Shown here one piece after another: positions 1,260 through 63,737 of a stretch of 64,000 nucleotides of DNA. A program made the position numbers and the translations under genes. The stretch lies in the NCBI GenBank assembly GCA_016188775.1, contig JACPHC010000010.1:31333-95332 (forward strand), given 5' to 3'. Position 1 is the stretch's first letter. Each line of letters opens with the position of its first letter. The stretch comes from Parcubacteria group bacterium. GTDB lineage: Bacteria; Patescibacteriota; Minisyncoccia; JACPHC01. Under the pieces are notes generated by a model that was not told where the DNA came from, made no database searches, and worked only from the letters and a program-made list of their open reading frames with translations.

Positions 1260-1462
1260 ATTTTATGAGCGCAGTCGCAGCAGGTTCGTGTTTTTTCGCT
1301 CCATTCAGCATTATTTATAATCATTTTTTTTGCAATTTGGGCACAATCTTTTTATTTCGTAATGACGTAAAAATTTTTCTCTTAAATATAAAGTTAATAC
1401 AAGAAAAAACACAAGAAATAAAATAAAAATTGTTGCCGCTATTCATGGTTTTTCAAAACGAT

Positions 1463-1705
1463 TCATCTTTCCTCCTTAATTTTTTTATATTCCTTTTCCG
1501 CGCAAGTTTGGCAAATTTTTATTTTTGGATCGTTTAACGACCAAGTTAAAAAATTAACTTCGGCCTTACAGGAGGGGCAGATGATTTTTATGATATATTG
1601 ACGAAGAGCTTTTTCTCTTAGCCATGCCGATAAAATTATTCCGAAAATTAAAAAGATTCCAAAAGCTCCAAGAGCTAACCATGGATTTAAAATAGTGTTT
1701 ATCAT
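1463..1705 (-). CDS. small membrane protein with C-terminal zinc ribbon
   Basis: N-terminal hydrophobic helix (LALGAFGIFLIFGIILSAWL) then CPSCK…CQTCAEKE (2x CxxC). Confidence 0.45.
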   Translation of the reverse strand: MINTILNPWLALGAFGIFLIFGIILSAWLREKALRQYIIKIICPSCKAEVNFLTWSLNDPKIKICQTCAEKEYKKIKEER

Positions 1706-6820: not shown

Positions 6821-6866
6821 ATTTCACTACAATGACCTCACGATCGTGAGGTCATTGTAGTGAATA
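6821..6866. repeat. perfect 42-46 bp palindrome (family C copy 1), TTCACTACAAT-GAC-CTCACGATCGTGAG-GTC-ATTGTAGTGAA
   Basis: Perfect palindrome centred on CGATCG between the mfd stop and the dprA start; second copy at 61307-61350 has a compensated 3-nt change. Confidence 0.8.
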
Positions 6867-6887
6867 ATTTACACTACTGGACGCCAG

Positions 6888-8840
6888 TTATTTTTTTAGT
6901 TTTTCAATCGCTTCATTGAGCAGTTGATAATAAAGATTCAATCCAACGGCATTAACGCAGCCGGATTGTTTGGCGCCAAGGATATTCCCGGCGCCGCGAA
7001 TTTTCAGGTCGGCCGTCGCGATTTCATAGCCGGCTCCCAAATGAGACATCTGACGCAAAGTCTCCAGCCGCTTTTTGGCTTTTTCCGGAATGCTTAAAGA
7101 GCGGTAAAGAAAATAAGCAAAAGCTTGCCGGTTGCCCCGGCCTACCCGGCCTCTTAATTGGTGCGCTTCGGCCAGACCCAAAAGCGATCCTTCTTCAACG
7201 ATCAGGGTGTTGACATTGGCTAAATCCAGGCCGTTTTCAATGATGGTCGTGGCCATTAAAACTTGAATTTTTTTCTCTCGAAAGTCTTGAATGATTTTAA
7301 GCAGAGATTTCTCGTTCATTCGGCCGTGAGCCGTTTCTATTTTCGGCCAATTTCCATGGCGGTTTTTCTTTAAAATCTTGATCAGATTTTTCTTGGCCGC
7401 TTCAATGGTTTCAATTCGGTTATGCAAAAAGAAAACTTGGCCGCCTCTCTGAAGTTCGTAATTAATCGCCTCTTGAATTATTTTTTTTGAGAACGGCAGG
7501 ACAAAAGTTTTAATCGGAGTTCTGCCCAGGGGCGCCTCGTCAATTCGCGAAAGCGACCTTAACGAAGAAAGAGCCAAAGAAAGAGTGCGGGGGATAGGGG
7601 TGGCCGATAAGCTTAAAATATCCAAAACAGCGCGCATCTTTTTCATTTTTTCTTTTTGGCGCACGCCGAATTTTTGCTCCTCGTCAATTATCAAAAGTCC
7701 GAGATTTTTAAATTCGATGTCCGGAGAAAGCAGGCGGTGGGTGCCGATAATAATGTCAATTTTGCCGTTTTTTAAATCAGCCAGAGTCTGTTTTGTTTCT
7801 TTTTTGGAAAAAAGACGGGAAACGCGCTCGATATTCAAAGGGAATTTTTTAAGCCGATTTTTAAAAGTTTCAAAATGCTGTTGGGCCAGTATTGTCGTTG
7901 GCGAAATCAAGGCGACCTGCGATCCGTTTAGAGCTACTCGAAAGGCCGCGCGCAGCGCGACTTCGGTTTTTCCAAAGCCGACATCGCCGACGACAATTCT
8001 ATCCATTGGGCGTTGACTTTCCAAATCCTTAAAAATTTCACTAATCGTTTTCTTTTGGCTTTCGGTTTCTTGATATTCAAAAGAATCCGTTAGCATTATT
8101 TCTAGGTGTCGGTCCGGAACATAAGGTTTTCGGCCGACCATTTCTCTTTTGGCGTAAATAGCGATTAATTCTTTGGCAAATTCAATTATATTTTCTTTGA
8201 TTTTTTTTCTGGTATTTCCCCAGAGAGGGCTGCCCAAGCGGTGAATTTTGGGAGTTTCAAATCCAAGATACGGGCTGATTTTTTCTTTGAGTCCAAAAGG
8301 AACAAAAAGCAAATCCGGACGACCGCCGATTTTAGGCGGAGCGTATTCTATGATGAAATATTTATTTTGTTTTTTTTCTTGAACGCCCCGAAAGATTCCA
8401 ATGCCGTGATCCAAGTGGACGACATAATCGCCGAGATTAAAGACATCCTCTTTTGATTTTTTGGGCTTTTGCCCGGACAACGTTGTCGGCTCTATTTCAA
8501 TAATTTCTTCAAGCCGGTTGTTTTCAAAATCAAGCCTGATAATTTTTTCAGAGTTTATCGGAAAGATGTCAATAATGCCGCCTTGTTTGGAAAATTCGCC
8601 GGCGGAAAAAACTTTGGAAACTTTTTTGTAGCCCAAATCGTCAAATTGTTTTAAAAGCCGGCTGATGGCAATGTTGTCGTCTTTTCGCAAAAAAAGAGTG
8701 TTTTTTTGGAAAAAAATCTGGGTTTTGGCCGAATTTTTTATTTGATGAAAATTTTCCGAAAACCACAAAACGGGCTTTTCCAAAAAAGAGGGGGTAAGCC
8801 CGGCGATTAAAATTTCTTTTTGTCTGATTAAATTATTCAT
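6888..8840 (-). CDS. mfd: transcription-repair coupling factor Mfd-like helicase, short form lacking the UvrB-homology N-terminal module
   Basis: RNAP-interaction motif GDYVVHLDHGIGIF; Mfd-type Walker A GDVGFGKTEVALRAAF; DEEQKFGV; helicase C motifs (QLRGRVGRG); 650 aa versus ~1150 for canonical Mfd. Confidence 0.7.
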   Translation of the reverse strand: MNNLIRQKEILIAGLTPSFLEKPVLWFSENFHQIKNSAKTQIFFQKNTLFLRKDDNIAISRLLKQFDDLGYKKVSKVFSAGEFSKQGGIIDIFPINSEKIIRLDFENNRLEEIIEIEPTTLSGQKPKKSKEDVFNLGDYVVHLDHGIGIFRGVQEKKQNKYFIIEYAPPKIGGRPDLLFVPFGLKEKISPYLGFETPKIHRLGSPLWGNTRKKIKENIIEFAKELIAIYAKREMVGRKPYVPDRHLEIMLTDSFEYQETESQKKTISEIFKDLESQRPMDRIVVGDVGFGKTEVALRAAFRVALNGSQVALISPTTILAQQHFETFKNRLKKFPLNIERVSRLFSKKETKQTLADLKNGKIDIIIGTHRLLSPDIEFKNLGLLIIDEEQKFGVRQKEKMKKMRAVLDILSLSATPIPRTLSLALSSLRSLSRIDEAPLGRTPIKTFVLPFSKKIIQEAINYELQRGGQVFFLHNRIETIEAAKKNLIKILKKNRHGNWPKIETAHGRMNEKSLLKIIQDFREKKIQVLMATTIIENGLDLANVNTLIVEEGSLLGLAEAHQLRGRVGRGNRQAFAYFLYRSLSIPEKAKKRLETLRQMSHLGAGYEIATADLKIRGAGNILGAKQSGCVNAVGLNLYYQLLNEAIEKLKK

Positions 8841-9016
8841 TTTTAGATGGAGCGTAGGCTTGACTCGCGGAACCGTTGTCGGCTCGCCCCAGCGGCTCGC
8901 CGCAACTTAATTCTCGGCGCCAAAACTTTTGCTTCGCAAAAGACCAATCTTTTGGCGCCTCCGAGATATTCCGCTAAGCAAGTTTACGCTCCGTCTATTT
9001 TAAAATAATCATCCGT

Positions 9017-9553
9017 CTATTTAATTTTAATCTCAATATCTTCAATTGTTTCTTTAATGATCTTTTTTAAAGTTTTTTCTTCGTTGGGGGCGAATTTTTG
9101 CAAAACCAGTTTTTCCGCTTTCATTCTTCTTTTTTCTTTTGGCGGTCGAATGCCGACGCGAAAACGCCATAATTCATTGGTTTTTAAATTTTTAATAACT
9201 GACTCCACTCCTTTGTGGCCGGCCGAATGTTTGCCAAAAGAAATTTTGATTTTGCCGAATTCAATGTCTGAATCGTCGTGGACGACAAATATGTTCGCCG
9301 GTTTGATTTTGTAATATTTAGCCGCCAAGCCGGCCGATTTTCCGGAATTGTTCATAAAAGTTTCCGGCAGAAGAAGGATAATCCCGCTTTTTTTAATTTT
9401 TGTTTGAGCTATTTTTCCGAACGCTTTTTTGTCTTCACGAAATTCAATTCCCAGTTTTTTAGCCAGTGCTTCAACAACCCGTCTTCCTATGTTATGGCGG
9501 GTATTTTCATATTTTTTGCCCGGATTGCCTAAGCCGATGATGAGATATGACAT
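9017..9553 (-). CDS. pth: peptidyl-tRNA hydrolase
   Basis: MSYLIIGLGNPGKKYENTRHNIGRRVVEALA: canonical Pth N-terminus. Confidence 0.9.
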   Translation of the reverse strand: MSYLIIGLGNPGKKYENTRHNIGRRVVEALAKKLGIEFREDKKAFGKIAQTKIKKSGIILLLPETFMNNSGKSAGLAAKYYKIKPANIFVVHDDSDIEFGKIKISFGKHSAGHKGVESVIKNLKTNELWRFRVGIRPPKEKRRMKAEKLVLQKFAPNEEKTLKKIIKETIEDIEIKIK

Positions 9554-9601: not shown

Positions 9602-10177
9602 ATGGAAAAATTAAGAATAATGTTTAAAAATTTTTTCAGGCAGGCTTGGGAGATCGCGAAAATCATCGTTGTTTCTTTGGCCATTATCATTCCCGTCCGT
9701 TATTTTCTTGTCCAGCCGTTTCTTGTCAAAGGTTCTTCAATGGAGCCGAATTTTCAAGACGGCAATTATCTTTTAATTGACGAAATATCGCCGCGGCTGC
9801 GCGATTACGGGAGAGGGGATATTATTGTTTTTCGCTTTCCGCAAAATCATGGCATTTATTTGATTAAAAGAATCATCGGACTGCCTGGCGAGGAAGTGGA
9901 AATAGACAATGGCCGGATTTATGTTTGGGACGCCGTTGGCCTTAAAAAAATCGCTTTAATCGAGCCGTATTTGGCCAATGGCGTTTTAACTCTTGGCAGT
10001 TCCCGGATTACTTTGGGCCAAAACGAATATTTTGTTTTGGGAGACAATCGCGCCGCCAGTTCCGATTCGCGGAGTTGGGGTTCGGTTAAAAAAGATAATA
10101 TTGTCGGTAAGGTTTGGCTGCGCGCTTGGCCCATAGCCGAGGCCGGTTTTTTTGAAACCCCGAACTACAGACCATAG
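9602..10177 (+). CDS. lepB: signal peptidase I
   Basis: TM anchor, catalytic Ser box (GSSMEP), Lys box (YLIKRIIGLPGE), GDNRAASSDSRSWG. Confidence 0.85.
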   Translation: MEKLRIMFKNFFRQAWEIAKIIVVSLAIIIPVRYFLVQPFLVKGSSMEPNFQDGNYLLIDEISPRLRDYGRGDIIVFRFPQNHGIYLIKRIIGLPGEEVEIDNGRIYVWDAVGLKKIALIEPYLANGVLTLGSSRITLGQNEYFVLGDNRAASSDSRSWGSVKKDNIVGKVWLRAWPIAEAGFFETPNYRP

Positions 10178-10180
10178 GTC

Positions 10181-10333
10181 TTTCGCTTATAATGATTAAA
10201 GAAGTTATTCTAAAAATTTTTAAGGTCGAGGCGCTTTAATTAAATTATATAATCCGCCGAGGGTGCCTAAAAAATTTTAGAATAACTTCTTGCCATTATT
10301 CCGAAAAATTATTTCGCAAAAAGTTTTATTAAA
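10181..10333. repeat. family A hairpin element copy 1 (A1 subtype) forming the hisS 5' region
   Basis: cgcTTATAATgattaaa + 22-bp arm (gaagttattctaaaaattttta) + conserved core GGTCGAGGCGCTTTAATTAAATTATATAATCCGCCGAGGGTGCC + complementary arm + conserved tail running to the hisS ATG; near-identical copies at 50363-50512 and 52665-52815. Confidence 0.8.
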
Positions 10334-14572: not shown

Positions 14573-15055
14573 ATGAAGAAAACAAAAATAATAACGGACA
14601 AGAAAGATATTGAAAAACTTCTCGTAAAACAGACTGCGGTAATTTTAAACGCGGTTGATGAGAAAATTTCAAAGCTTGACAAGTCAGTTGATGAGAAAAT
14701 TTCAAAGCTTGACAAGTCAGTTGATGAGAAAATTTCAAAGCTTGACAAGTCAGTTGATGAGAAAATTTCAAAGCTTGACAAGTCAGTTGATGAGAAAATT
14801 TCAAAGCTTGACAAGTCAGTTGATGAGAAAATTTCAAGACTTAGTTTGGAAATAATTAAAAGAGAAGCCCATATGGACGCGCGACTTGGAAAGCTTGAAG
14901 AAAGATTGACTAAAAAAATCGATCAGCTTACTACGGCATTAGATAAGTTTCTCACCCGTCTTACTGGACTCGAGCAAGAATTTATATTTATGAAGGAAGA
15001 TATAAAAAGAATAAAATCAATTTTAAAAGAGAAAATTGGAGTCGATTTAACTTAG
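14573..15055 (+). CDS. hypothetical coiled-coil protein with 11-residue tandem repeats (VDEKISKLDKS x5, then a diverged copy), lying between ftsA and ftsZ
   Basis: 160-aa ORF; five perfect 33-bp DNA repeats encode a perfect hendecad repeat; C-terminal heptad-like region (LGKLEERLTKKIDQLTTALDKFLTRLTGLEQE). Confidence 0.55.
   Translation: MKKTKIITDKKDIEKLLVKQTAVILNAVDEKISKLDKSVDEKISKLDKSVDEKISKLDKSVDEKISKLDKSVDEKISKLDKSVDEKISRLSLEIIKREAHMDARLGKLEERLTKKIDQLTTALDKFLTRLTGLEQEFIFMKEDIKRIKSILKEKIGVDLT
14654..14851 (+). repeat. 33-bp direct tandem repeat, 5 perfect units plus 1 diverged unit
   Basis: gttgatgagaaaatttcaaagcttgacaagtca repeated head-to-tail with no spacers, so not CRISPR; lies inside the 14573..15055 CDS. 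Confidence 0.95.
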
Positions 15056-16445: not shown

Positions 16446-18752
16446 ATGTTAAAAAATCCCATCAAACAAGTTGAAAAACGCGACGGCCGGATTGTTGATT
16501 TTGATCAGGCGAGAATCACCAGCGCTATTTACCGGGCCATGGAAGCGGCGAACGAAGGCGATTTGGGTCGGGACCCTCAAAAAGTTTCCGATCGCGTGGT
16601 CAAAGAGTTGATAAAAAAATATTCCAAAGGAGGGATTCCAAAAATAGAAGAAATTCAGGACGTCGCGGAAGAGTCTTTAATTTTATTGGATTTCCCCAAA
16701 GTCGCCAAGGCTTACATTCTTTACCGGCATGAGCGTTCGCTGGTTCGGGAGAAACAAAAATTTATTCCGGAGCGCGTTAAAAAATTAGCCAGCGAGTCTA
16801 AAAAATATTTCCGCAATCCTTTGGGCGAATTTATTTTTTACCGGACTTATTCGCGCTGGATCGAAGAAGAAAATCGAAGGGAAACTTGGATTGAAACGGT
16901 TGATCGCTATGTTAATTTTATGAAAGAAAATTTGGGCCAGCGGCTGAAAGAAGATGAATACGCGACGATTCGCGAGGCGATTTTAAATCAGGAAGTAATG
17001 CCTTCAATGCGGCTTTTATGGAGCGCGGGCAAAAGCGCTAAAGCCACTAATGTTTCGGCCTATAATTGTTCTTATTTAGCACCCTCAAAAATAGAGGATT
17101 TTGCCGAGATTATGTATCTACTGATGTGCGGCGCCGGAGTCGGGTTTTCCGTGGAATCGCAGACAGTTCAAGAATTGCCGATCGTCAAGCGTCAGAATGG
17201 AAAAATAAGAGAGGCTTACGCGATAGCCGACAGCAAAGAAGGCTGGGCCGACGCTTTGACTCTTGGTTTAAAAACTTGGTACGAAGGAGAGGATATTGAA
17301 TTTGATTTTTCCCAGCTTCGGCCGGCTGGAGCCCGTCTTAAAACCATGGGCGGCCGAAGTTCCGGCCCGGCTCCTTTGGTCGCTCTTTTGGATTTTACTC
17401 GGAATAAAATTTTGTCCAGACAGGGAAAGAGATTGAGCAATTTAGATGTTCACGATATTATCTGCAAAATCGCGGATTTGGTGGTGATGGGCGGCGTTCG
17501 GCGATCGGCCCTGATTTCTTTATCGGACCTTGACGATGAAGAGATGCGATTTGCCAAAACCGGACAATTTTACTTGACTGACCCGCAGAGAATGCTGGCT
17601 AATAATTCGGCTGTTTATAATTATCGGCCGACTTCAACCCAATTTTTGGACGAGTGGCTGGCTTTGGCCAAAAGCGGCACGGGCGAGCGGGGAATTTTTA
17701 ACCGCGGCAGTCTAAAAAATCAATTGCCGGAGAGGCGTTGGAAGGTTTTTGAGAAATATTGGCAGACGTCCGGCACTAATCCCTGCGGCGAAATTATTCT
17801 AAGATCGAAGCAATTTTGCAATCTTTCGGAAGTGGTGGCGCGAGCCCAAGATACCGAAGAAACTTTGCTTAGAAAAGTTGAAATAGCGGCGATTTTGGGA
17901 ACTTATCAATCAACTTTCATTAATTTTCCATATATTTCCAAAGATTGGAGGAAAAATTGCGAAGAAGAAAGGTTGCTGGGAGTTTCCATAACCGGCCAGT
18001 GGGATAGTTCGGCCGCCCGATCTCCGGAAATTTTACGAAAATTAAAAGTTCAAGCCGTTAAAACAAATCGTCAATACGCCAAGAAATTCGGCGTTAACGA
18101 ATCAACGTGCGTGACGTGCGTTAAGCCGTCCGGCACGGTTTCGCAATTGGTGGATGCCGCTTCGGGCATGCATCCGCGCCACGCCAAATATTATATTCGC
18201 CGGATCCGTATTTCCGCCACTGATCCGCTTTTCCAAATGTTAAAGGAACAAAAATTTCCCTATCAGCCGGAAGTGGGGCAATTGGAAAATTCCGCCACTA
18301 CTTACGTGTTGGATTTTCCGGTTAAAGCCCCCAAAAGCGCGGCTTTAAGAAACGATTTGACGGCTATGAGTCAGTTGGAGTATTGGAAAATTGTTAAAAT
18401 GAATTACACCGAGCATAATCCTTCCGTGACCATTACCGTTGACGACGGCGAATGGATTGAGGTGGCCAATTGGCTTTATCAAAACTGGGACATGCTGGGC
18501 GGTCTTTCTTTTTTGCCTAAAGAAAAACACGTTTATCAATTGGCTCCTTATGAAGAAATTACCGAAGAGAAATATGTTGAGTTAATGTCTAGAATGCCCG
18601 ATATTGATTTTTCCCAAATTATCGCTTACGAAAAAGAAGATCAGACAACCGGCGCCAAAGAATTGGCCTGCGTGGGCGGAGTTTGCGAAATTGATCCGGA
18701 AGAAGGCAGCGTGCCAACAGCAGAGACAAAAATTATCGCGGCCAGTTATTAA
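16446..18752 (+). CDS. nrdJ: ribonucleotide reductase with N-terminal ATP-cone, probably class II (B12-dependent)
   Basis: ATP-cone (VEKRDGRIVDFDQARITSAI); NPCGEI active-site motif; C-terminal Cys pair; no adjacent NrdB-like gene; class assignment is inference. Confidence 0.65.
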   Translation: MLKNPIKQVEKRDGRIVDFDQARITSAIYRAMEAANEGDLGRDPQKVSDRVVKELIKKYSKGGIPKIEEIQDVAEESLILLDFPKVAKAYILYRHERSLVREKQKFIPERVKKLASESKKYFRNPLGEFIFYRTYSRWIEEENRRETWIETVDRYVNFMKENLGQRLKEDEYATIREAILNQEVMPSMRLLWSAGKSAKATNVSAYNCSYLAPSKIEDFAEIMYLLMCGAGVGFSVESQTVQELPIVKRQNGKIREAYAIADSKEGWADALTLGLKTWYEGEDIEFDFSQLRPAGARLKTMGGRSSGPAPLVALLDFTRNKILSRQGKRLSNLDVHDIICKIADLVVMGGVRRSALISLSDLDDEEMRFAKTGQFYLTDPQRMLANNSAVYNYRPTSTQFLDEWLALAKSGTGERGIFNRGSLKNQLPERRWKVFEKYWQTSGTNPCGEIILRSKQFCNLSEVVARAQDTEETLLRKVEIAAILGTYQSTFINFPYISKDWRKNCEEERLLGVSITGQWDSSAARSPEILRKLKVQAVKTNRQYAKKFGVNESTCVTCVKPSGTVSQLVDAASGMHPRHAKYYIRRIRISATDPLFQMLKEQKFPYQPEVGQLENSATTYVLDFPVKAPKSAALRNDLTAMSQLEYWKIVKMNYTEHNPSVTITVDDGEWIEVANWLYQNWDMLGGLSFLPKEKHVYQLAPYEEITEEKYVELMSRMPDIDFSQIIAYEKEDQTTGAKELACVGGVCEIDPEEGSVPTAETKIIAASY

Positions 18753-18815: not shown

Positions 18816-18916
18816 AAAGCCGGTCTAATCCGGCGGTCGTAAACTTTTTGGGTGTTTTTACTCTTTGGAGTATTGATCCTGAAAAAGGATGAAGGCCGCC
18901 GGATTAGACCGGCTTT
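18816..18916. other. long hairpin (23-bp stem, ~55-nt loop with an inner hairpin) downstream of the RNR gene
   Basis: aaagccggtctaatccggcggtc … ggccgccggattagaccggcttt, nearly perfect complement; possible terminator or sRNA. Confidence 0.5.
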
Positions 18917-19781: not shown

Positions 19782-21206
19782 TTGTCTAATATGTCTAAAT
19801 CTCGGATTTTTTTAATTTGGCTTCTTTGTTTTATTGCCGGAATTTTTTTCGCTTCTTATATCAGTTGGCCGAAATTATTTTTAATATTTTTATCCATTGT
19901 CTCTTCGGCGGTTATTCTGGTTTTTAGAAAAGAAAAAATTATTTTTATTTTTGCGGGCGGAATTTTGATTTTTAGCCTCGGATTTTTAAGAATCGCGGGA
20001 ATCGCGGAGAAAAAATCGACGCTTGATCAATATTTAGATAAAAAAATTATTAGCCGAGGAATAGTAATGGCCGAGCCAAAAACAAAAGGAGAATCAACCA
20101 GTTTTCTTTTGGAAATTAGGGGAGAAAAAATTCAAATCAGAACCCGAAATTATCCGATTATCAATTATGGCGACGAATTAGAAGTTCAGGGCCAGCTTAA
20201 ATCGGTTCAAAATTCCGCTATCCGCTACGCTCTCAATTGGCCCAAAATTGAAATTCAAAAAAAAGATCAAGGGAATTTTTTCAAATCCAGTCTTTTTAAA
20301 TTAAAAGAAAAATTCAGCCAAAATATTTCTCAAAATATGCCCGAACCCGAAGCCTCGCTGCTGGCCGGCTATATTTTCGGCTCCCGAAATCTTCCTTCGG
20401 ATGTCGAGCAAAATTTTAAAACCCTCGGCCTTTCCCATATCGTCGCGGTTTCCGGTTTTAATTTAAGCGTTATCGCGCTTTTTATCAGTCAAATTTTTAC
20501 TTATTTTAATTGGCCTCGTTTTTTGAAATTTTGGAGCGCCGTTTCCATTATTTTTCTTTTTGTTTTAATGATCGGTTTTCCGTCTTCGGCCATGCGGGCC
20601 GCGATTATGGCTATTTTAGTTTTAGTGGCGGAAAAAGAAGGCCGCTTGTACGAATCCGCTCATGCCATAATTTTTGCCGGCGCTCTGATGCTTTTATTGG
20701 ATCCTTTAATTTTGCGTTTTGACCTGGGGTTTTCTTTGTCGTTCTTAGCGACTTTGGGGCTGATTTTTCTCTCGCCGATTTTACCGAAATATCTGCCTCA
20801 ACTCGTTTCCCAGACTTTGGCCGCCCAAATTTTTGTTTTACCGGTTCTGCTTTTAAATTTCGGCGTCGTCTCTCCCTACAGTTTATTGGTTAATTTTTTG
20901 ATTTTGCCCTTGGTGCCTCTGGCCATGCTTTTAGGATTTTTAGCCGGCCTGACTGGTTTTATTTTTCAAATTTTGGCCGAAATTATCAGTTGGCTGGCTT
21001 GGCCGATTTTATTTTATCAAATTAAAATCGCTCAATTTTTTTCTTTTTTCCCTTACGCCAAGATTAATTTCGGAAAAATCAGTTTGATTTTCGCCTTTAT
21101 TTATTACGCGGCGATTGGATTTATTATTTTTAAAAATAGAAATAAAGTACCCACTTCCACTTGCGGCGCTGATGTTTTGTTGGGGCATAATAAGCAGGTA
21201 TCCTAA
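19782..21206 (+). CDS. comEC: ComEC/Rec2 DNA-uptake channel, membrane part (DUF4131 + competence domain)
   Basis: Polytopic membrane protein; competence-domain motif LSHIVAVSGFNLSVIALF; the stop codon lies inside a family A repeat. Confidence 0.75.
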   Translation: MSNMSKSRIFLIWLLCFIAGIFFASYISWPKLFLIFLSIVSSAVILVFRKEKIIFIFAGGILIFSLGFLRIAGIAEKKSTLDQYLDKKIISRGIVMAEPKTKGESTSFLLEIRGEKIQIRTRNYPIINYGDELEVQGQLKSVQNSAIRYALNWPKIEIQKKDQGNFFKSSLFKLKEKFSQNISQNMPEPEASLLAGYIFGSRNLPSDVEQNFKTLGLSHIVAVSGFNLSVIALFISQIFTYFNWPRFLKFWSAVSIIFLFVLMIGFPSSAMRAAIMAILVLVAEKEGRLYESAHAIIFAGALMLLLDPLILRFDLGFSLSFLATLGLIFLSPILPKYLPQLVSQTLAAQIFVLPVLLLNFGVVSPYSLLVNFLILPLVPLAMLLGFLAGLTGFIFQILAEIISWLAWPILFYQIKIAQFFSFFPYAKINFGKISLIFAFIYYAAIGFIIFKNRNKVPTSTCGADVLLGHNKQVS

Positions 21207-21280
21207 AAAATTTTTGAGGTCGAGGCTCTTTAATGAAATTATATAATCCGCCGAGGGGACCTAAAAATTTTTAGGATACC
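21197..21280. repeat. family A hairpin element copy 2 (A2 subtype)
   Basis: gtatcctaaaaaattttt-GAGGTCGAGGCTCTTTAATGAAATTATATAATCCGCCGAGGGGACC-taaaaatttttaggatac; arms differ from A1 copies but remain mutually complementary. Confidence 0.8.
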
Positions 21281-21362
21281 TACGAAATTAGAAAAGATAA
21301 AGGCGATTTAAAAAATCTATTTCCGAAGCCTTGCTATAAAGTATTCGGCGAATACGTAAAAA

Positions 21363-26992: not shown

Positions 26993-27348
26993 TGGTCGCG
27001 ATTACTGAACGAAGCTCGAACCTTTTTCGAGCGAAAATCGCTCGAATGATTTGAAACCCCACCCCAGCGTTTCCGCCCGCCGAAACTCGGCGAGCAAAGC
27101 AAAACAATTTTCTTTTCAATTCTTTAATTTTTCGCGCGACCTTTTTTCTTTTAAAAGGAATTGAAAATTGTTTTGCTTTGATGTCTTGATACCAAGACGG
27201 CGGAAACTCTTCCCACCCCATTGCGCTTACGGCGCAGAACAGGCGGGCAAAAATTCCTTCCCCCCAACCCCCTTCCTTTTTGCCCGCCCGCTGGAAACTC
27301 CCAGCGGATTTTTCGGGCGGCGGGCCCTCAAATTGAGTGGTGGGTGGA

Positions 27349-31520: not shown

Positions 31521-31594
31521 TGGTCGGACCACCCGGAATCGAACCGGGGCTATACCCACCCCAAGGGTACGGACTGCCACTATCCGATGGTCCG
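31521..31594 (-). tRNA. tRNA-Pro (anticodon GGG), CCA encoded
   Basis: Folds by hand into a cloverleaf: acceptor CGGACCA/TGGTCCG, D-loop AGTGGCA, anticodon stem TACCC/GGGTA with loop TTGGGGT, T-arm CCCGG-TTCGATT-CCGGG, 3' ACCA. Confidence 0.8.
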
Positions 31595-42278: not shown

Positions 42279-42686
42279 ATGTTATCGCCAAAAAAAGTAA
42301 AACATAGAAAATGGCATAAGGGTCGTTCCCGCGCCAAAGTCGCCGCCAGGGGCGCTAAATTAAGTTTTGGCAGTTTTGGAATTAAAGCTGAAGGAGAGCA
42401 GTGGATTAATGCCAGACAAATTGAAGCGGCGCGCCGAGCTATTATCCATTTTATTGAAAAACGCGGCAAAATTTGGGTCAGAATTTTCCCGGACAAACCA
42501 GTGACGACTAAAGGCAATGAAGTGCCGATGGGTCACGGAAAAGGCGCGGTTGATCGTTACGTGGCGCCGGTTAAGCCGGGGCAAGTTATTTTTGAAATCG
42601 ACGGCGTCACTAAAGAAATAGCTCAAAAGGCCATGTATCGAGCGGCGGCGAAATTGCCGGTTAAAACAAGATTTATTTCAAGATAA
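42279..42686 (+). CDS. rplP: ribosomal protein L16
   Basis: MLSPKKVKHRKWHKGR…. Confidence 0.9.
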   Translation: MLSPKKVKHRKWHKGRSRAKVAARGAKLSFGSFGIKAEGEQWINARQIEAARRAIIHFIEKRGKIWVRIFPDKPVTTKGNEVPMGHGKGAVDRYVAPVKPGQVIFEIDGVTKEIAQKAMYRAAAKLPVKTRFISR

Positions 42687-42710
42687 AATTATGATAAATA
42701 TGATAAATAA

Positions 42711-42791
42711 GTATCCTAAAAATTTTTGAGGTCGAGGCACTTTAATGAAATTATATAATCTGCCGAGGGTACCTAAAAATTTTTAGGATAC
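42711..42791. repeat. family A hairpin element copy 3 (A2 subtype) in the L16-L29 spacer
   Basis: gtatcctaaaaatttttGAGGTCGAGGCACTTTAATGAAATTATATAATCTGCCGAGGGTACCtaaaaatttttaggatac. Confidence 0.8.
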
Positions 42792-42803
42792 TTATTAAAC
42801 ATT

Positions 42804-42986
42804 ATGAAAATAAAAAAATTAAAAAATAAATCTTTTGAGGAATTAAAAAAAACGCTTGCCGCCGCAAGAGCTAAATTGAAATCTTTGCGATTTGAAAGAG
42901 CTCTGGGCGGAAAGATAAAAGACAATCAAGAGATGAAGAAAACTAAAAAAGAAATTGCCAGAGTTTTAACTTTAATAAATTTATGA
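42804..42986 (+). CDS. rpmC: ribosomal protein L29
   Basis: [31 protein letters not shown]. Confidence 0.85.
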
Positions 42987-49702: not shown

Positions 49703-49716
49703 TTTGTAAAATTTTA

Positions 49717-49906
49717 CAGCGTTGTTTACATTATCCTGCAGGTAATGAGCGCGAAAACACGCTATCAAATTTCCCAGCGAGAAATTTTCGCTTGTTTTCG
49801 GGCTCGCTCGTCTCCCTGCGGGAGACACCTGCCCGCTCGCCTTGCGAGACAGCTTTCTTAGCTCATTACCTGCAGGATACAATACATAAAAGTGTAAACA
49901 ACGCTC
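49717..49906. other. ~190-bp structured element with long two-part terminal inverted repeat and GC-rich hairpin interior
   Basis: cagcgttgtttaca…ttatcctgcaggtaatgagc at the left pairs with gctcattacctgcaggatac…tgtaaacaacgctc at the right; inner hairpins tctccctgcgggaga and gcgagaaattttcgc. Confidence 0.55.
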
Positions 49907-50312: not shown

Positions 50313-50362
50313 GGTATAATAATATTATAGACTTCTTGCGAAATAATTTTTTAAAAATCCAT

Positions 50363-50512
50363 TTCCTTCGCTTATAATGATTAAAGAAGTTATTCTAAAA
50401 ATTTTTAAGGTCGAGGCGCTTTAATTAAATTATATAATCCGCCGAGGGTGCCTAAAAAATTTTAGAATAACTTCTTGTTATTATTCTGAAAAATTATTTC
50501 GCAAAAAGTCTT
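50363..50512. repeat. family A hairpin element copy 4 (A1 subtype) forming the 5' region of the GT2 gene
   Basis: Same TTATAAT + arm + core + arm + conserved tail as copy 1; ends at the ATG of the 50513 gene. Confidence 0.85.
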
Positions 50513-52638: not shown

Positions 52639-52664
52639 TGTTTCGCAATATTTTAAAAATCTAT

Positions 52665-52815
52665 TTCCTTCGCTTATAATGATTAAAGAGATTATTCTAA
52701 AAATTTTTAAGGTCGAGGCTCTTTAATTAAATTATATAATCCGCCGAGGGTACCTGAAAAATTTTAGAATAACTTCTTGTTATTATTTCGAAAAATTATT
52801 TCGCAAAAAAGTTTT
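52665..52815. repeat. family A hairpin element copy 5 (A1 subtype) forming the tpiA 5' region
   Basis: Same architecture as copies 1 and 4; ends at the ATG at 52816. Confidence 0.85.
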
Positions 52816-61306: not shown

Positions 61307-61350
61307 TTTCACTACAATCAACTCACGATCGTGAGTTGATTGTAGTGAAA
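61307..61350. repeat. perfect palindrome, family C copy 2 (TTCACTACAAT-CAA-CTCACGATCGTGAG-TTG-ATTGTAGTGAA)
   Basis: Same outer and core sequence as 6821-6866 with the internal triplet swapped and compensated. Confidence 0.8.
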
Positions 61351-61441
61351 TAAATGAAATAGTGGAATAAAATAAAGCAAATTAATATTTGGGTCATGAT
61401 AAATTTTGATGTGGATAAGTAATATGGTATAATAATTATCT

Positions 61442-61790: not shown

Positions 61791-63737
61791 ATGAACGAGT
61801 TTAAAAAATATTTTTTCGTCTTTTTTTTAATTTTCGGGGTTTTATTTTTTTTGGGTGTTTTCACACCTGATTTTTTTGTCTTGGCTTCCTCTCCTTTTGA
61901 TATTACTTATCCGATTTCCGAGCTGTCTAGTTGCGCCACTCAAGACGAGTGTCGGGTTTATTGCGATAATTTGGCTAATAAAGACGTTTGTTTCGCTTTT
62001 GCTCAAAAGCACGGTTTTGTTTCCAAAGACGACGCGGAAAAGATTAAAAATTTGCCTTTGGTCGGTCCGGGCGGCTGTCAGGGCGAGAATCAGTGCCGAG
62101 AATTTTGCGGCAAATCGGAAAATCAAAATGAATGCTTTAATTTTGCCAAGACAAACGGCTTGATTTCTCAGGATGAAATTCGGCGTTTTGAAAAATTTAA
62201 CAAAATTAAAGGGCCGGCTGGCTGCCGCGGTTTTGAAGAATGCCATCAAGCTTGCGGCGATCCCCGGAATGCTCGGGCTTGTTTGGAAATTTCCAGAAAA
62301 GAAGGACTGATTGAAGAAAAAGAGTTCGGACTTTTAGAAGATGTTTTGGAAAAAGGCGGCCCGGGGGGGTGTTTGGGTCCGGAAGAGTGTCAGATCTATT
62401 GCCAAGATTCAAATCATCTCGCCGAATGCGTTAATTTTGCCAAAGAACATCATTTTATATCCGAAGCAGAAGCGGCCAAAATTCAGGCTTTGCCTCAAAT
62501 CGGTCCGGGCGGTTGTCAAGGGGAGGTTTGCCGAACTTATTGCCAAGTTCCGGCTCATCAGACGGAATGTATAAATTTTGCCGTGGAAAATGGATTTATG
62601 TCTGAAGAAGAAGCTCTCCATGCGAGAAAAGCCATGGAAGCGATGCGGGCCGGCGGACCCGGAGGATGTTCGGGCCCGGATGAATGCCGAGTTTATTGCG
62701 AAAATCCGGACAATTTTGAAGCATGCGCTGGATTTGGAGAAAAAAATGGTTTGGTAAACAAAGAAGACATTAGGCGCGGTCGGGAATTTTCAAGAACTAT
62801 TCGAGAGAAAGGCGGCCCCGGCGGTTGCCATAAGCCTGAAGAATGCCGAGTTTATTGCGAAAATCTGGATCACGGAGATGAATGTTTTGAGTTTGGAAAG
62901 AAACAGGGGCTTATTCGCGAAGAAGATATTAAAAATTTTGAACGCGGAAAAGAGATCCGGAAAAAAGTAATGGAAACCGGCGGCCCCGGCGGATGCAAAT
63001 CCGATAATGAGTGCCGCTCTTATTGCCAAGATTCTTCTCGTGCCGAAGAGTGTCTCGCTTTCGCGGTTGAGCATGGCGGAATTCCTCCCGAAGACGCCAA
63101 AATGATGCTCGAAAATTTTGTCCGTGAAACTCATCGGCCGGAATTCGGTCCTCCGTCGAGAGATTTTGAAAAATTTGAGCAGGAAAAATTTAGAAGATTT
63201 GATGAATTTCGAGGATTAGAACGTCAATTTCGACAAGGTCCGGCGACTCAATTTCAAGGCGGTCCGGGCGGTTGTTTGAGTCCGGAAGAATGCATCAAAT
63301 TTTGTTCCGATCCGGCCAATCGCGATACTTGCGCTCATTTTGGTCCGCCTTCCGGAGGTCCGCCGTCAGGAGAAATATTTAAACAAGTTCCTTCCGGTTC
63401 TGAATCCGAATTTAGAAATATTGAGCCGTTTATACTGCCCAAAAATACGCCTTATCCGCGAATGATGCCGCCAACCGAGGTCGCTTCTCCTTTTTCCCCG
63501 GATTTAATAAATCCTCAATATCCGCAATACGCGCCTCGGCAATTTGGCCCCGGCGGTTGCGCTTCAGAGGCTGAATGCAAAGCTTACTGTTCGGATCCGG
63601 CGCGCGCCACTGAATGCGGAATTTATGTTCCGCCTTCGATAACTCCAGAGTTAAAAAATTCTTCCTCGCCTCAAAGCGGTTTTCTAAGATTTTTATCCGC
63701 GATGTTAGGCGTTATTTTGCCCGGATTTAGATATTAA
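61791..63737 (+). CDS. secreted/membrane-anchored cysteine-rich modular repeat protein (~10 modules GPGGC-x4-EC-x2-YC-x7-EC-x2-FA…G[LF]I…EE)
   Basis: N-terminal signal/TM (FFVFFLIFGVLFFLGVF); ~48-aa modules with 4 Cys each; Pro-rich C-terminal region and a hydrophobic C-terminus (FLRFLSAMLGVILPGF). Confidence 0.6.
   Translation: MNEFKKYFFVFFLIFGVLFFLGVFTPDFFVLASSPFDITYPISELSSCATQDECRVYCDNLANKDVCFAFAQKHGFVSKDDAEKIKNLPLVGPGGCQGENQCREFCGKSENQNECFNFAKTNGLISQDEIRRFEKFNKIKGPAGCRGFEECHQACGDPRNARACLEISRKEGLIEEKEFGLLEDVLEKGGPGGCLGPEECQIYCQDSNHLAECVNFAKEHHFISEAEAAKIQALPQIGPGGCQGEVCRTYCQVPAHQTECINFAVENGFMSEEEALHARKAMEAMRAGGPGGCSGPDECRVYCENPDNFEACAGFGEKNGLVNKEDIRRGREFSRTIREKGGPGGCHKPEECRVYCENLDHGDECFEFGKKQGLIREEDIKNFERGKEIRKKVMETGGPGGCKSDNECRSYCQDSSRAEECLAFAVEHGGIPPEDAKMMLENFVRETHRPEFGPPSRDFEKFEQEKFRRFDEFRGLERQFRQGPATQFQGGPGGCLSPEECIKFCSDPANRDTCAHFGPPSGGPPSGEIFKQVPSGSESEFRNIEPFILPKNTPYPRMMPPTEVASPFSPDLINPQYPQYAPRQFGPGGCASEAECKAYCSDPARATECGIYVPPSITPELKNSSSPQSGFLRFLSAMLGVILPGFRY

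Follow-up and report, generated by a model that had tools for sequence, protein, structure and literature searches.

Correia elements (CREEs) occur as hundreds of near-identical copies that share a conserved inverted repeat of 26 bp and an IHF site and that duplicate a TA target. Rickettsia palindromic elements (RPEs) and mitochondrial GC clusters, which form GC-rich islands in AT-rich DNA, are comparable to the element dealt with here, and 6S RNA is a rod-like molecule with a large central bubble. As far as they are described in PMC2649163, Correia elements are located in transcribed spacers, can create promoters, and are bound or cleaved by RNase III. Palindromes of the ERIC/IRU type are regarded as selfish insertions that incidentally affect how stable an mRNA is (PMC2229807, PMC3184786), and the effects of MITEs and ERIC sequences on mRNA have been reviewed (PMC2229807, PMC3184786, PMC10969869).

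The stretch of 64 kb of Parcubacteria DNA that was analysed here (the window) contains, between the pth and mfd genes, a spacer that had been described in the initial annotation as GC-rich, highly structured and a candidate ncRNA. The first two attributes are confirmed, since the 154-nt core of the spacer has the top stability in the 64 kb (z of -8.9) and its GC content is 0.53-0.55, as compared to ~0.41 around it. As for the third, the sequence is indeed exceptional and a role at the RNA level in cis is plausible, but a conserved stand-alone regulatory RNA is unsupported. The reading that we favour, and to which we give about an even chance, is that a non-coding nested palindrome, rich in GC, was inserted in this lineage specifically; it would be an orphan, and any effect it has would be exerted in cis on the mRNA of pth and mfd. 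The features of the locus are as follows, P1 to P4 being the helices obtained by folding.

9017..9553, minus strand: pth (peptidyl-tRNA hydrolase), upstream gene of the operon; Pfam Pept_tRNA_hydro, E 8e-54
6888..8840, minus strand: mfd (transcription-repair coupling factor), short, 650 aa; Pfam domains UvrB_inter, CarD_TRCF_RID, DEAD and Helicase_C; its ATG is separated from the base of P1 by 3 nt that contain no Shine-Dalgarno sequence
8841..9016, no strand assigned: whole pth-mfd spacer, 176 nt, the exact gap from the pth stop codon (9017-9019) to the mfd ATG (8840); absent in the relatives L040 and L041, whose spacer is 2 nt
8844..8997, no strand assigned: nested-palindrome core of 154 nt, which folds as a Y on both strands (MFE folding); TAGAYGGAGCGTARRCTTG is the string by which copies of it would be recognised
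8844..8862, plus strand: 5' arm of P1, the left terminal inverted repeat, TAGATGGAGCGTAGGCTTG (repeat search and folding)
8979..8997, plus strand: 3' arm of P1, the right terminal inverted repeat, CAAGTTTACGCTCCGTCTA; 16 of 19 pairs Watson-Crick and three G·U on the plus strand
8867..8872, plus strand: P2, GCGGAA, pairing with TTCCGC (UUCCGC in RNA) at 8969-8974 and closing the three-way junction (MFE folding)
8875..8906, plus strand: P3, hairpin GTTG-T-CGGC-TC-GCC-CCAGC-GGC-TC-GCCG-CAAC (MFE folding)
8912..8966, plus strand: P4, long hairpin, GGCGCCAAAA/TTTTGGCGCC with the apex CTTTTGC-TTC-GCAAAAG (MFE folding)
8998..9016, minus strand: AT-rich unstructured segment of 19 nt, ACGGATGATTATTTTAAAA, adjoining the pth stop
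9012..9022, minus strand: 11-nt direct repeat AAATAGACGGA, copy 1, which takes in the pth stop TAG (TAGACGGAT is also listed)
8990..9000, minus strand: the same 11-nt repeat, copy 2, which starts the 5' arm of the element on this strand
9008..9036, minus strand: weak sigma-70-like match TTGAGA-17-GATGAT, 9/12; 5 sites found against 2.4 expected in shuffles
8843..8947, minus strand: ORF of 34 codons inside the element, TTG start, GGAGG 10 nt upstream
8847..9008, plus strand: ORF of 53 codons spanning the element, judged non-coding (no Pfam match, no homologue)

An outer inverted repeat of ~17 bp with three mismatches had been annotated, and it was found as GATGGAGCGTAGGCTTG / GACGGAGCGTAAACTTG at 8846-8862 / 8979-8995; 0.06 such matches are expected by chance, and none of 100 shuffles reached 2. 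It can be extended to 19 bp (8844-8862 / 8979-8997), and its three mismatches are all transitions, which appear as G·U pairs on the plus strand and as A·C on the minus strand. Both the MFE and the centroid structures consist of P1 (19 bp), a small internal loop, P2 (6 bp), and then P3 and P4, so that the nested hairpins of the initial annotation, including cttttgc-ttc-gcaaaag, were recovered as P2, P3 and P4. P1, 2 bp and P2 stack to ~27 bp. The rod with a long closing stem that had been proposed is therefore right as to the stem, which is real and 19 bp long, but not as to the rod, the shape being that of a Y with a three-way junction. Within P3 the direct repeat GGCTCGCC occurs twice, and a symmetric internal loop reads UC/UC on the plus strand and tandem GA/GA on the minus strand. 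P4 contains a 7-nt asymmetric loop, ACCAATC, and its apex on the minus strand is GCGAAGC, with a GAA triloop. Beyond the stem, the tail is UAUUUUAA on the plus strand and CUAAAAAUG on the minus strand.

The RNA MFE is -79.7 kcal/mol on the plus strand (z -8.86) and -79.1 kcal/mol on the minus strand (z -6.50), with 0 of 200 shuffles as low in either case, and folding with DNA parameters gave z values of -8.0 and -7.3. The element is the lowest-energy 160-nt window of the entire 64 kb, in which the mean is -37.4 (sd 8.7), and its structure persists when it is folded in the mRNA context. For the 154-nt core alone the values are -79.5 (plus) and -77.1 (minus), and 56 of its 59 pairs are Watson-Crick, only three being G·U. 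A fold that is nearly equal on the two strands and made up of Watson-Crick pairs to this extent characterises a DNA palindrome or a recent insert, and not an RNA long selected on one strand. That the three mismatches of P1 should all fall as G·U on the plus strand has a chance probability of 0.25 (1 in 4, either strand), and the features of the minus strand, namely the tandem G·A loop in P3 and the GCGAAGC triloop hairpin in P4, point the other way. An assembly artefact was considered and rejected, two independent Logan contigs, each with one half of the element joined to pth or to mfd and with the break between them at 8946-8950, being in 100% agreement with the window.

A search of the whole window against Rfam 15 gave no match at the gathering threshold, and a local search of positions 8700-9150 at E<10 gave only noise, with no model of 6S, SRP, tmRNA or RNase P. 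This agrees with the initial annotation in that no SRP, tmRNA or RNase P motif had been recognised in the spacer, and it tells against its 6S-type reading, as do the three-way junction and the nearest relatives, which do not have the spacer. On the basis of these sequence searches, the element is not a known RNA. A second copy was not found in the 64-kb window, in which the repeat finder, patterns of the inverted repeat and of P3, and a covariance model built from the single sequence (R2) returned only self-matches. A pattern with both inverted repeats at a spacing of 101-131 nt had 0 matches in 241 million JGI metagenome records, a single inverted-repeat pattern had 0 in viral contigs, blastn against phages and plasmids gave 0 matches, and blastn-short against all the fetched loci gave nothing except the Logan contigs of the source itself. 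The R2 model matched only the element itself in 473 kb of fetched Parcubacteria DNA. Two matches of a P4 pattern in viral contigs were discarded as chance palindromes, and a weak match of R2 to one locus (L079, 21 bits) was discarded as an unrelated direct repeat. With respect to the host lineage, no Mfd of intermediate identity, above 69% and below 100%, was found among 5.8 billion proteins, either with the full protein or with its N-terminal 150 aa as query, and the best relative in a search of genome contigs was 52% identical. No homologue of the element that could show covariation was found.

The closest loci available (L040 and L041) show the same hisS-lepB-pth-mfd synteny as the window, with Mfd 69% and Pth 68% identical, and their junction reads ...AAATAGatATG..., with the stop of pth and the start of mfd 2 nt apart; the comparison with this empty site is thus made with relatives that are only 69% identical in Mfd. 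In relatives outside the clade bearing the RNA family described below, pth and mfd overlap by 8 nt (L135) or are separated by a 59-nt unstructured spacer (L136), and the junction behaves as a variable hotspot among relatives. A neighbour-joining tree of Mfd groups the window with the loci with 2-nt spacers, and the RNA-bearing loci form a separate clade. The tight spacers in relatives, together with this grouping, indicate that a tight, translationally coupled pth-mfd pair is, as judged from these sequences, likely the ancestral state, and that the 154-bp element would have been gained in the lineage of the window. Conservation in relatives, which had been put forward as a check of the candidate ncRNA, was not observed, the two closest lacking the spacer and no homologue having been found; together with the lack of an Rfam hit, this counts against that candidate.

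Several other features argue for an insertion. The element is bounded by 19-bp terminal inverted repeats that are complementary at 16 of 19 positions, it is short (154 bp, thus <300 bp), its 53-aa ORF has neither a Pfam match nor a homologue, and the site is empty in the closest relatives (TAGatATG). It is flanked at both ends by AAAA on the minus strand; this AAAA/TTTT is possibly a 4-bp target duplication, a 4-bp A-run being weak as evidence in AT-rich DNA. A second nested palindrome of like architecture is located at 49713-49905 (-90.0/-95.1), which shows no sequence relation to the element (score 16 against a shuffle mean of 18), and a 44-bp REP-like palindrome is present in two copies in the window (D16/I3). 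This genome does thus accumulate palindromic intergenic elements. Other observations speak against the insertion. Only one copy is seen in the 64 kb, and mobile palindromic elements are defined by repetition. The 11-nt direct repeat linking the region of the pth stop to the first arm of the element is unexplained by simple transposition, and the interior, with three perfect GC-rich helices at a junction, is more elaborate than that of most MITEs. The three G·U pairs of P1 on the plus strand hint at the other strand, with the chance probability already given, the pth-mfd junction of another clade is occupied by a functional RNA, so that one may be present here too, and a structure of -79 kcal/mol only 3 nt away from the start codon of a conserved repair gene seems a high cost for an insert that is purely selfish. 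All in all, the element is more probably a stray palindromic insert on the operon mRNA than a conserved regulatory RNA gene.

If it is such an insert, it would have landed in an ancestrally tight, translationally coupled pth-mfd junction, and it would be transcribed on the minus strand within the pth-mfd mRNA or from a weak promoter at the 3' end of pth. The promoter-like match on this strand, whose second hexamer (GATGAT) sits inside the AT-rich segment at 8998..9016, is weak, but if real it would place a transcript start just before the element. Since there are only 3 nt between the base of P1 and the mfd AUG, which leaves no room for a promoter, mfd would be transcribed through the element. 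Intrinsic terminators were not called at the element on either strand, and no U-tract directly follows the stem on the minus strand (CUAAAAAUG), so that read-through to mfd is expected. The RNA would form a very stable Y whose basal helix stops 3 nt upstream of the mfd AUG. It is possible that translational coupling of pth and mfd was thereby lost, that initiation at mfd became reduced or structure-dependent, its start being without a Shine-Dalgarno sequence and at the foot of a stable structure, and that the pth message acquired a stabilising hairpin at its 3' end. The long coaxial P1-P2 helix might also be a site for RNase III, an enzyme that cleaves dsRNA helices of ~20 bp or more, by analogy with Correia elements. 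The 34-codon ORF of the minus strand, whose stop codon UAA leaves 2 nt to the mfd AUG, could be a uORF that restores coupling or could be due to chance, as it is within chance expectation. The insertion mechanism, the transcription of the element and all of its effects on expression are what we infer.

An unexpected counterpart occupies the same junction in another clade. In other Parcubacteria, whose Mfd is ~50-56% identical to that of the window, a long pth-mfd spacer harbours a conserved structured element of ~125-165 nt, here denoted R1, which folds far better antisense to pth and mfd (-76.6 vs -52.8 in L047; -88.8 vs -75.3 in L045), the strand asymmetry amounting to 7-24 kcal/mol. A pattern built from three examples retrieved 83 loci from JGI metagenomes, flanked by pth and/or mfd in all but two cases, one of which is a chance match (L128) and the other a contig with too little flank (L103), and the orientation of R1 is constant wherever the contig carries mfd or pth. 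In an alignment of 53 distinct sequences (A3), five helices comprise 54 pairs, with 93.3% of the cells paired and compensatory changes at 33 pairs; the observed values were reached in 0 of 500 shuffles, and slid controls fall to 34-50% paired. The strand of R1 is fixed by the count of 312 G·U against 51 A·C cells (11% G·U pairs). A promoter with 12/12 matches to the consensus, TTGACA-16-TATAAT, overlaps the mfd start and is located back-to-back with an 11/12 mfd promoter, and variable small ORFs, or none, are found between the 3' end of R1 and pth. The hairpin loop GAUCCCUCCUUAA is invariant in 53/53 aligned sequences, bearing in mind that the retrieval pattern itself demanded ATCCCTCCT, and it resembles the 3' tail of 16S rRNA. 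R1, which is absent from Rfam, is an undescribed, strongly covarying RNA family of ~160 nt at the pth-mfd junction.

The element of the window is in an R1-type location, between pth and mfd, and it is similar to R1 in length (154 vs ~160 nt), in its closing helix of ~20 bp, and in that, by a small margin, its better-folding strand is the one antisense to pth and mfd. It differs in lacking the 54 covarying pairs, the loop GAUCCCUCCUUAA, the 12/12 promoter and the strong strand asymmetry of R1, the energies of its two strands being -79.5 and -77.1 kcal/mol with three G·U on the plus strand. The topology is also different: P2 of the element encloses two hairpins, whereas P1 of R1 encloses a two-hairpin domain and a third hairpin. 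A covariance model of R1 (162 positions, 54 pairs) gave no match to the element with default filters and, with filters off, a best score of 1.0 bit on a 17-nt hairpin apex, and a local alignment with the R1 consensus was within shuffle expectation (P = 0.08). The invariant loop of R1 hairpin B, AUCCCUCCU, is absent from the element, which has only CCUCC in the 3' strand of P4. Recognisable membership of the element in R1 was rejected on the grounds of the covariance model, the alignment statistics, the topology, the absence of a CCCUCC loop and of a plus-strand promoter, and the separate clade. A likeness of the window arms to the 3' arm of R1 (TAGAC(C)GGAG) was likewise set aside, the arm and the orientation being wrong and the 9-mer showing no enrichment in the window (15 occurrences against 11.9 expected).

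The alternative that survives best, although we consider it unlikely, is a plus-strand gene for an independent small RNA, antisense to pth and mfd, which would be a functional analogue of R1 or a relative diverged beyond recognition. The shared junction, the similar size and the similarly long closing stem are consistent with it, as are the three G·U pairs in P1, the sequence UAUUUU after the plus-strand stem, the CCUCC at 8958-8962 (plus strand), which recalls the invariant CCCUCC loop, and the fact that structured RNAs typically stand out as GC-rich islands where the genome is AT-rich. However, the R1 model scores at most 1 bit with the filters off, the local similarity is not beyond chance and the arrangement of helices is unlike that of R1. 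A sigma-70-like promoter on the plus strand was found neither within 260 nt upstream of the element nor near 8800-8845, in contrast to the 12/12 consensus in R1. Furthermore, the fold is symmetric between the strands, and the element is missing from the sister lineages, the RNA-bearing loci forming a clade apart. It may also be, though this is likewise unlikely, that the pth-mfd junction of Parcubacteria has been filled at least twice independently by structured RNAs of ~155 nt, the element being a second, unrelated orphan class of functional RNA. It would then do the job of R1; examples would be the insulation or tuning of mfd with respect to pth, or a trans-acting effect on translation.

Also improbable is the reading in which the minus strand evolved to regulate mfd in cis, as a leader or as an intercistronic riboregulator, for which the possible modes are a structure-gated start codon, uORF-coupled initiation, a processing site, or an element binding a ligand or a protein. 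The mfd AUG located 3 nt from the base of P1 without a Shine-Dalgarno sequence and the persistence of the structure in the mRNA context would fit such a leader. On the sense strand alone, P1 is weakened by the three A·C mismatches, and this strand also carries the tandem G·A internal loop of P3 and the GAA triloop (GCGAAGC) of P4. The 34-codon uORF, with GGAGG 10 nt upstream of its start, ends with a 2-nt gap to the AUG that equals the pth-mfd spacing of the relatives, and an RNA initiated at the weak promoter-like site would have its 5' end exactly at the element. Against this, neither the uORF nor the promoter match goes beyond what chance would produce, no conservation testifies to selection, Rfam gave no match to a riboswitch or leader, and the relatives manage mfd without a leader. 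The symmetric fold, moreover, argues for a recent origin at the DNA level rather than for an optimised RNA.

A site acting as DNA, that is, a hairpin or cruciform for a recombinase or transposase (attC-like or REP/RAYT-like) or for a replication or segregation protein, is considerably less probable. Equal foldability of both strands, also with DNA parameters, would suit this function, and so would the hotspot behaviour of the junction in relatives and the d(GCGAAGC) motif on the minus strand, which is a stable mini-hairpin. GCTCGC is over-represented, the element and the palindrome at 49713-49905 holding 4 of the 9 plus-strand occurrences in the window. The attC core sites RYYYAAC/GTTRRRY are, however, absent at the ends of the element, which read TAGAYGG...CCRTCTA, and no GTTRRRY is present within it. 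The tetranucleotides GTAG and CGTC are inside the arms and not at the ends, where REPs, as defined in PMC3733652, have them. Neither repeat copies nor an adjacent recombinase or RAYT gene were found. A replication origin was considered as well and discarded, the GC-skew profile showing no switch at 9 kb. Finally, a small protein (of 53 aa on the plus strand or 34 aa on the minus strand) is scarcely credible in spite of the open frames on both strands, since the nested base-pairing explains the sequence and the 53-aa ORF has no Pfam match and, among 5.8 billion proteins, no homologue with three 5-residue words in common, and a conserved protein is effectively refuted.

If the element is indeed an orphan palindromic insertion, it would mean that even candidate-phyla-radiation genomes of ~1 Mb acquire elaborate palindromic inserts, in this case in the middle of a conserved coupled operon, and the 3-nt distance between a structure of about -79 kcal/mol and the start codon of the transcription-repair coupling factor would amount to a natural experiment in operon uncoupling. 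The element by itself matters modestly, and the R1 family is the better target for RNA discovery; the most valuable outcome of this work is that undescribed covarying family, with its loop mimicking the 16S tail, at the pth-mfd junction of many other Parcubacteria.

Among the systems already described, 6S RNA (RF00013) is similar to the element in length (~150-190 nt) and in having a long closing stem; it is distinguished from it by the three-way junction on a 19-bp stem, the absence of a 6S match at E<10 and the lack of conservation of the element. ERIC/IRU sequences share with it the condition of imperfect palindromes of ~100-150 bp in transcribed spacers (PMC2229807, PMC3184786). ERIC/IRU, RPEs and GC clusters are, however, multi-copy families recognisable by sequence, whereas a second copy of the element was not found. 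Unlike CREEs, the element is single-copy, has no similarity to anything searched and has a branched GC-rich interior, and its cleavage by RNase III would be only by analogy. The Correia elements of Neisseria (CREE/NEMIS) are nevertheless, in the description of PMC2649163, like it in size (~100-155 bp), in being non-coding, in their terminal inverted repeats and in their location in intergenic co-transcribed spacers, and their inverted repeats give rise in the mRNA to a long hairpin that can be bound or cut by RNase III and can alter the expression of adjacent genes (PMC2649163). By analogy, then, the element resembles in kind the small palindromic insertions of the MITE, Correia, ERIC or RPE type, although present here as a single copy.

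Besides the single-copy GC-rich nested palindrome of the pth-mfd spacer (8844-8997; hereafter the element), the window contains other structured or repeated segments, most of them intergenic:

49713-49905, second nested palindrome, intergenic, with a plus-strand ORF on either side
18816-18916, 24-bp hairpin whose interior is structured, lying in the 310-nt spacer that follows ORF 16446..18752(+)
27181-27340, GC-rich (0.59) structured spacer separating two minus-strand ORFs
10160-10322, 21206-21287, 42666-42828, 50345-50507 and 52647-52809, five-copy intergenic repeat family
6822-6881 and 61307-61366, 44-bp perfect palindrome in two copies

The second nested palindrome matches the element in architecture, being closed by a long inverted repeat (14+19 bp) around a GC-rich interior made up of short perfect hairpins, and it folds alike on both strands (-90.0/-95.1 kcal/mol). 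No sequence similarity was found between the two, and the motif GCTCGC is enriched in both. The fold of 18816-18916 is strongly asymmetric between strands (-75.7 on the plus strand vs -56.5 on the minus strand), so that this segment probably acts at the RNA level, on the coding strand, for example as a 3' UTR or a terminator-like structure. The spacer at 27181-27340 has a folding energy of -72 to -76 kcal/mol. In the Logan assemblies of run SRR12113424, contigs break within the element itself, at 8946-8950 (end at 8946, start at 8950, with a 5-nt overlap, both contigs being 100% identical to the window), which suggests a coverage drop or an assembly difficulty at the hairpin.

Copies of the five-copy family, which span 82-163 nt, are 62-94% identical to the reference copy and include GAGGTCGAGGC...TATATAATCCGCCGAGGG. 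Plus-strand genes, hisS among them, begin a short distance downstream of these copies, which may represent a recurrent promoter or leader module. The first copy of the 44-bp palindrome (TTTCACTACAAT....CACGATCGTG....ATTGTAGTGAA), at 6822-6881, follows the mfd stop codon at a distance of 7 nt, and the two copies carry compensatory stem differences (GACC/GGTC vs CAAC/GTTG); it is therefore REP- or terminator-like. Repeats are also present inside coding sequence, namely a tandem array of 33-nt units at 14621-14875 (six overlapping 90-nt copies with a spacing of 33 nt) within a plus-strand ORF, and a separate Cys-rich coding repeat set at 61900-63320 in ORF 61791..63737.

Outside the window, a conserved RNA of about 160 nt, antisense to both genes, was observed at the pth-mfd junction of another Parcubacteria clade, in 83 JGI metagenome loci (including one chance match, L128, and one locus with too little flank, L103):

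L043-L131 (e.g. L047:1794-1953 and L060:709-872, both minus strand), pth-mfd antisense RNA
L122:974-1022 and 1429-1539, minus strand, antisense RNA plus mini-hairpin arrangement

In an alignment of 53 distinct sequences, compensatory changes occur at 33 of the 54 pairs. The hairpin loop GAUCCCUCCUUAA, which the retrieval pattern itself constrained, is invariant and resembles the 16S 3' tail. The promoter (12/12 consensus) stands back-to-back with that of mfd. This RNA has no entry in Rfam 15, and is hitherto undescribed. At L122 it is followed downstream by a mini-hairpin consisting only of P1, the closing stem, with an exact 24-nt repeat of the 3' arm of the RNA. Between the RNA and this mini-hairpin lies a single 101-aa ORF, with another SD-led ORF farther on, and the arrangement looks like a cassette or attachment site. 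The ORFs separating the RNA from pth are highly variable among loci and absent in some; the variants include a Zn-ribbon-like protein of 52 aa, a 62-aa family, and proteins of about 165 aa with a putative GGDEF motif, seen by eye in ORF translations.

As for genes of the window, ARAGORN predicted a tRNA-Pro(GGG) at 31521-31594 on the minus strand, but no tRNA was listed when the window was scanned with Rfam at gathering threshold. Throughout the group, Mfd (window 6888-8840 and relatives P0001-P0120) is about 640-700 aa long and keeps the UvrB-interaction, RID and helicase modules; the Mfd of model bacteria has about 1,100-1,200 aa.
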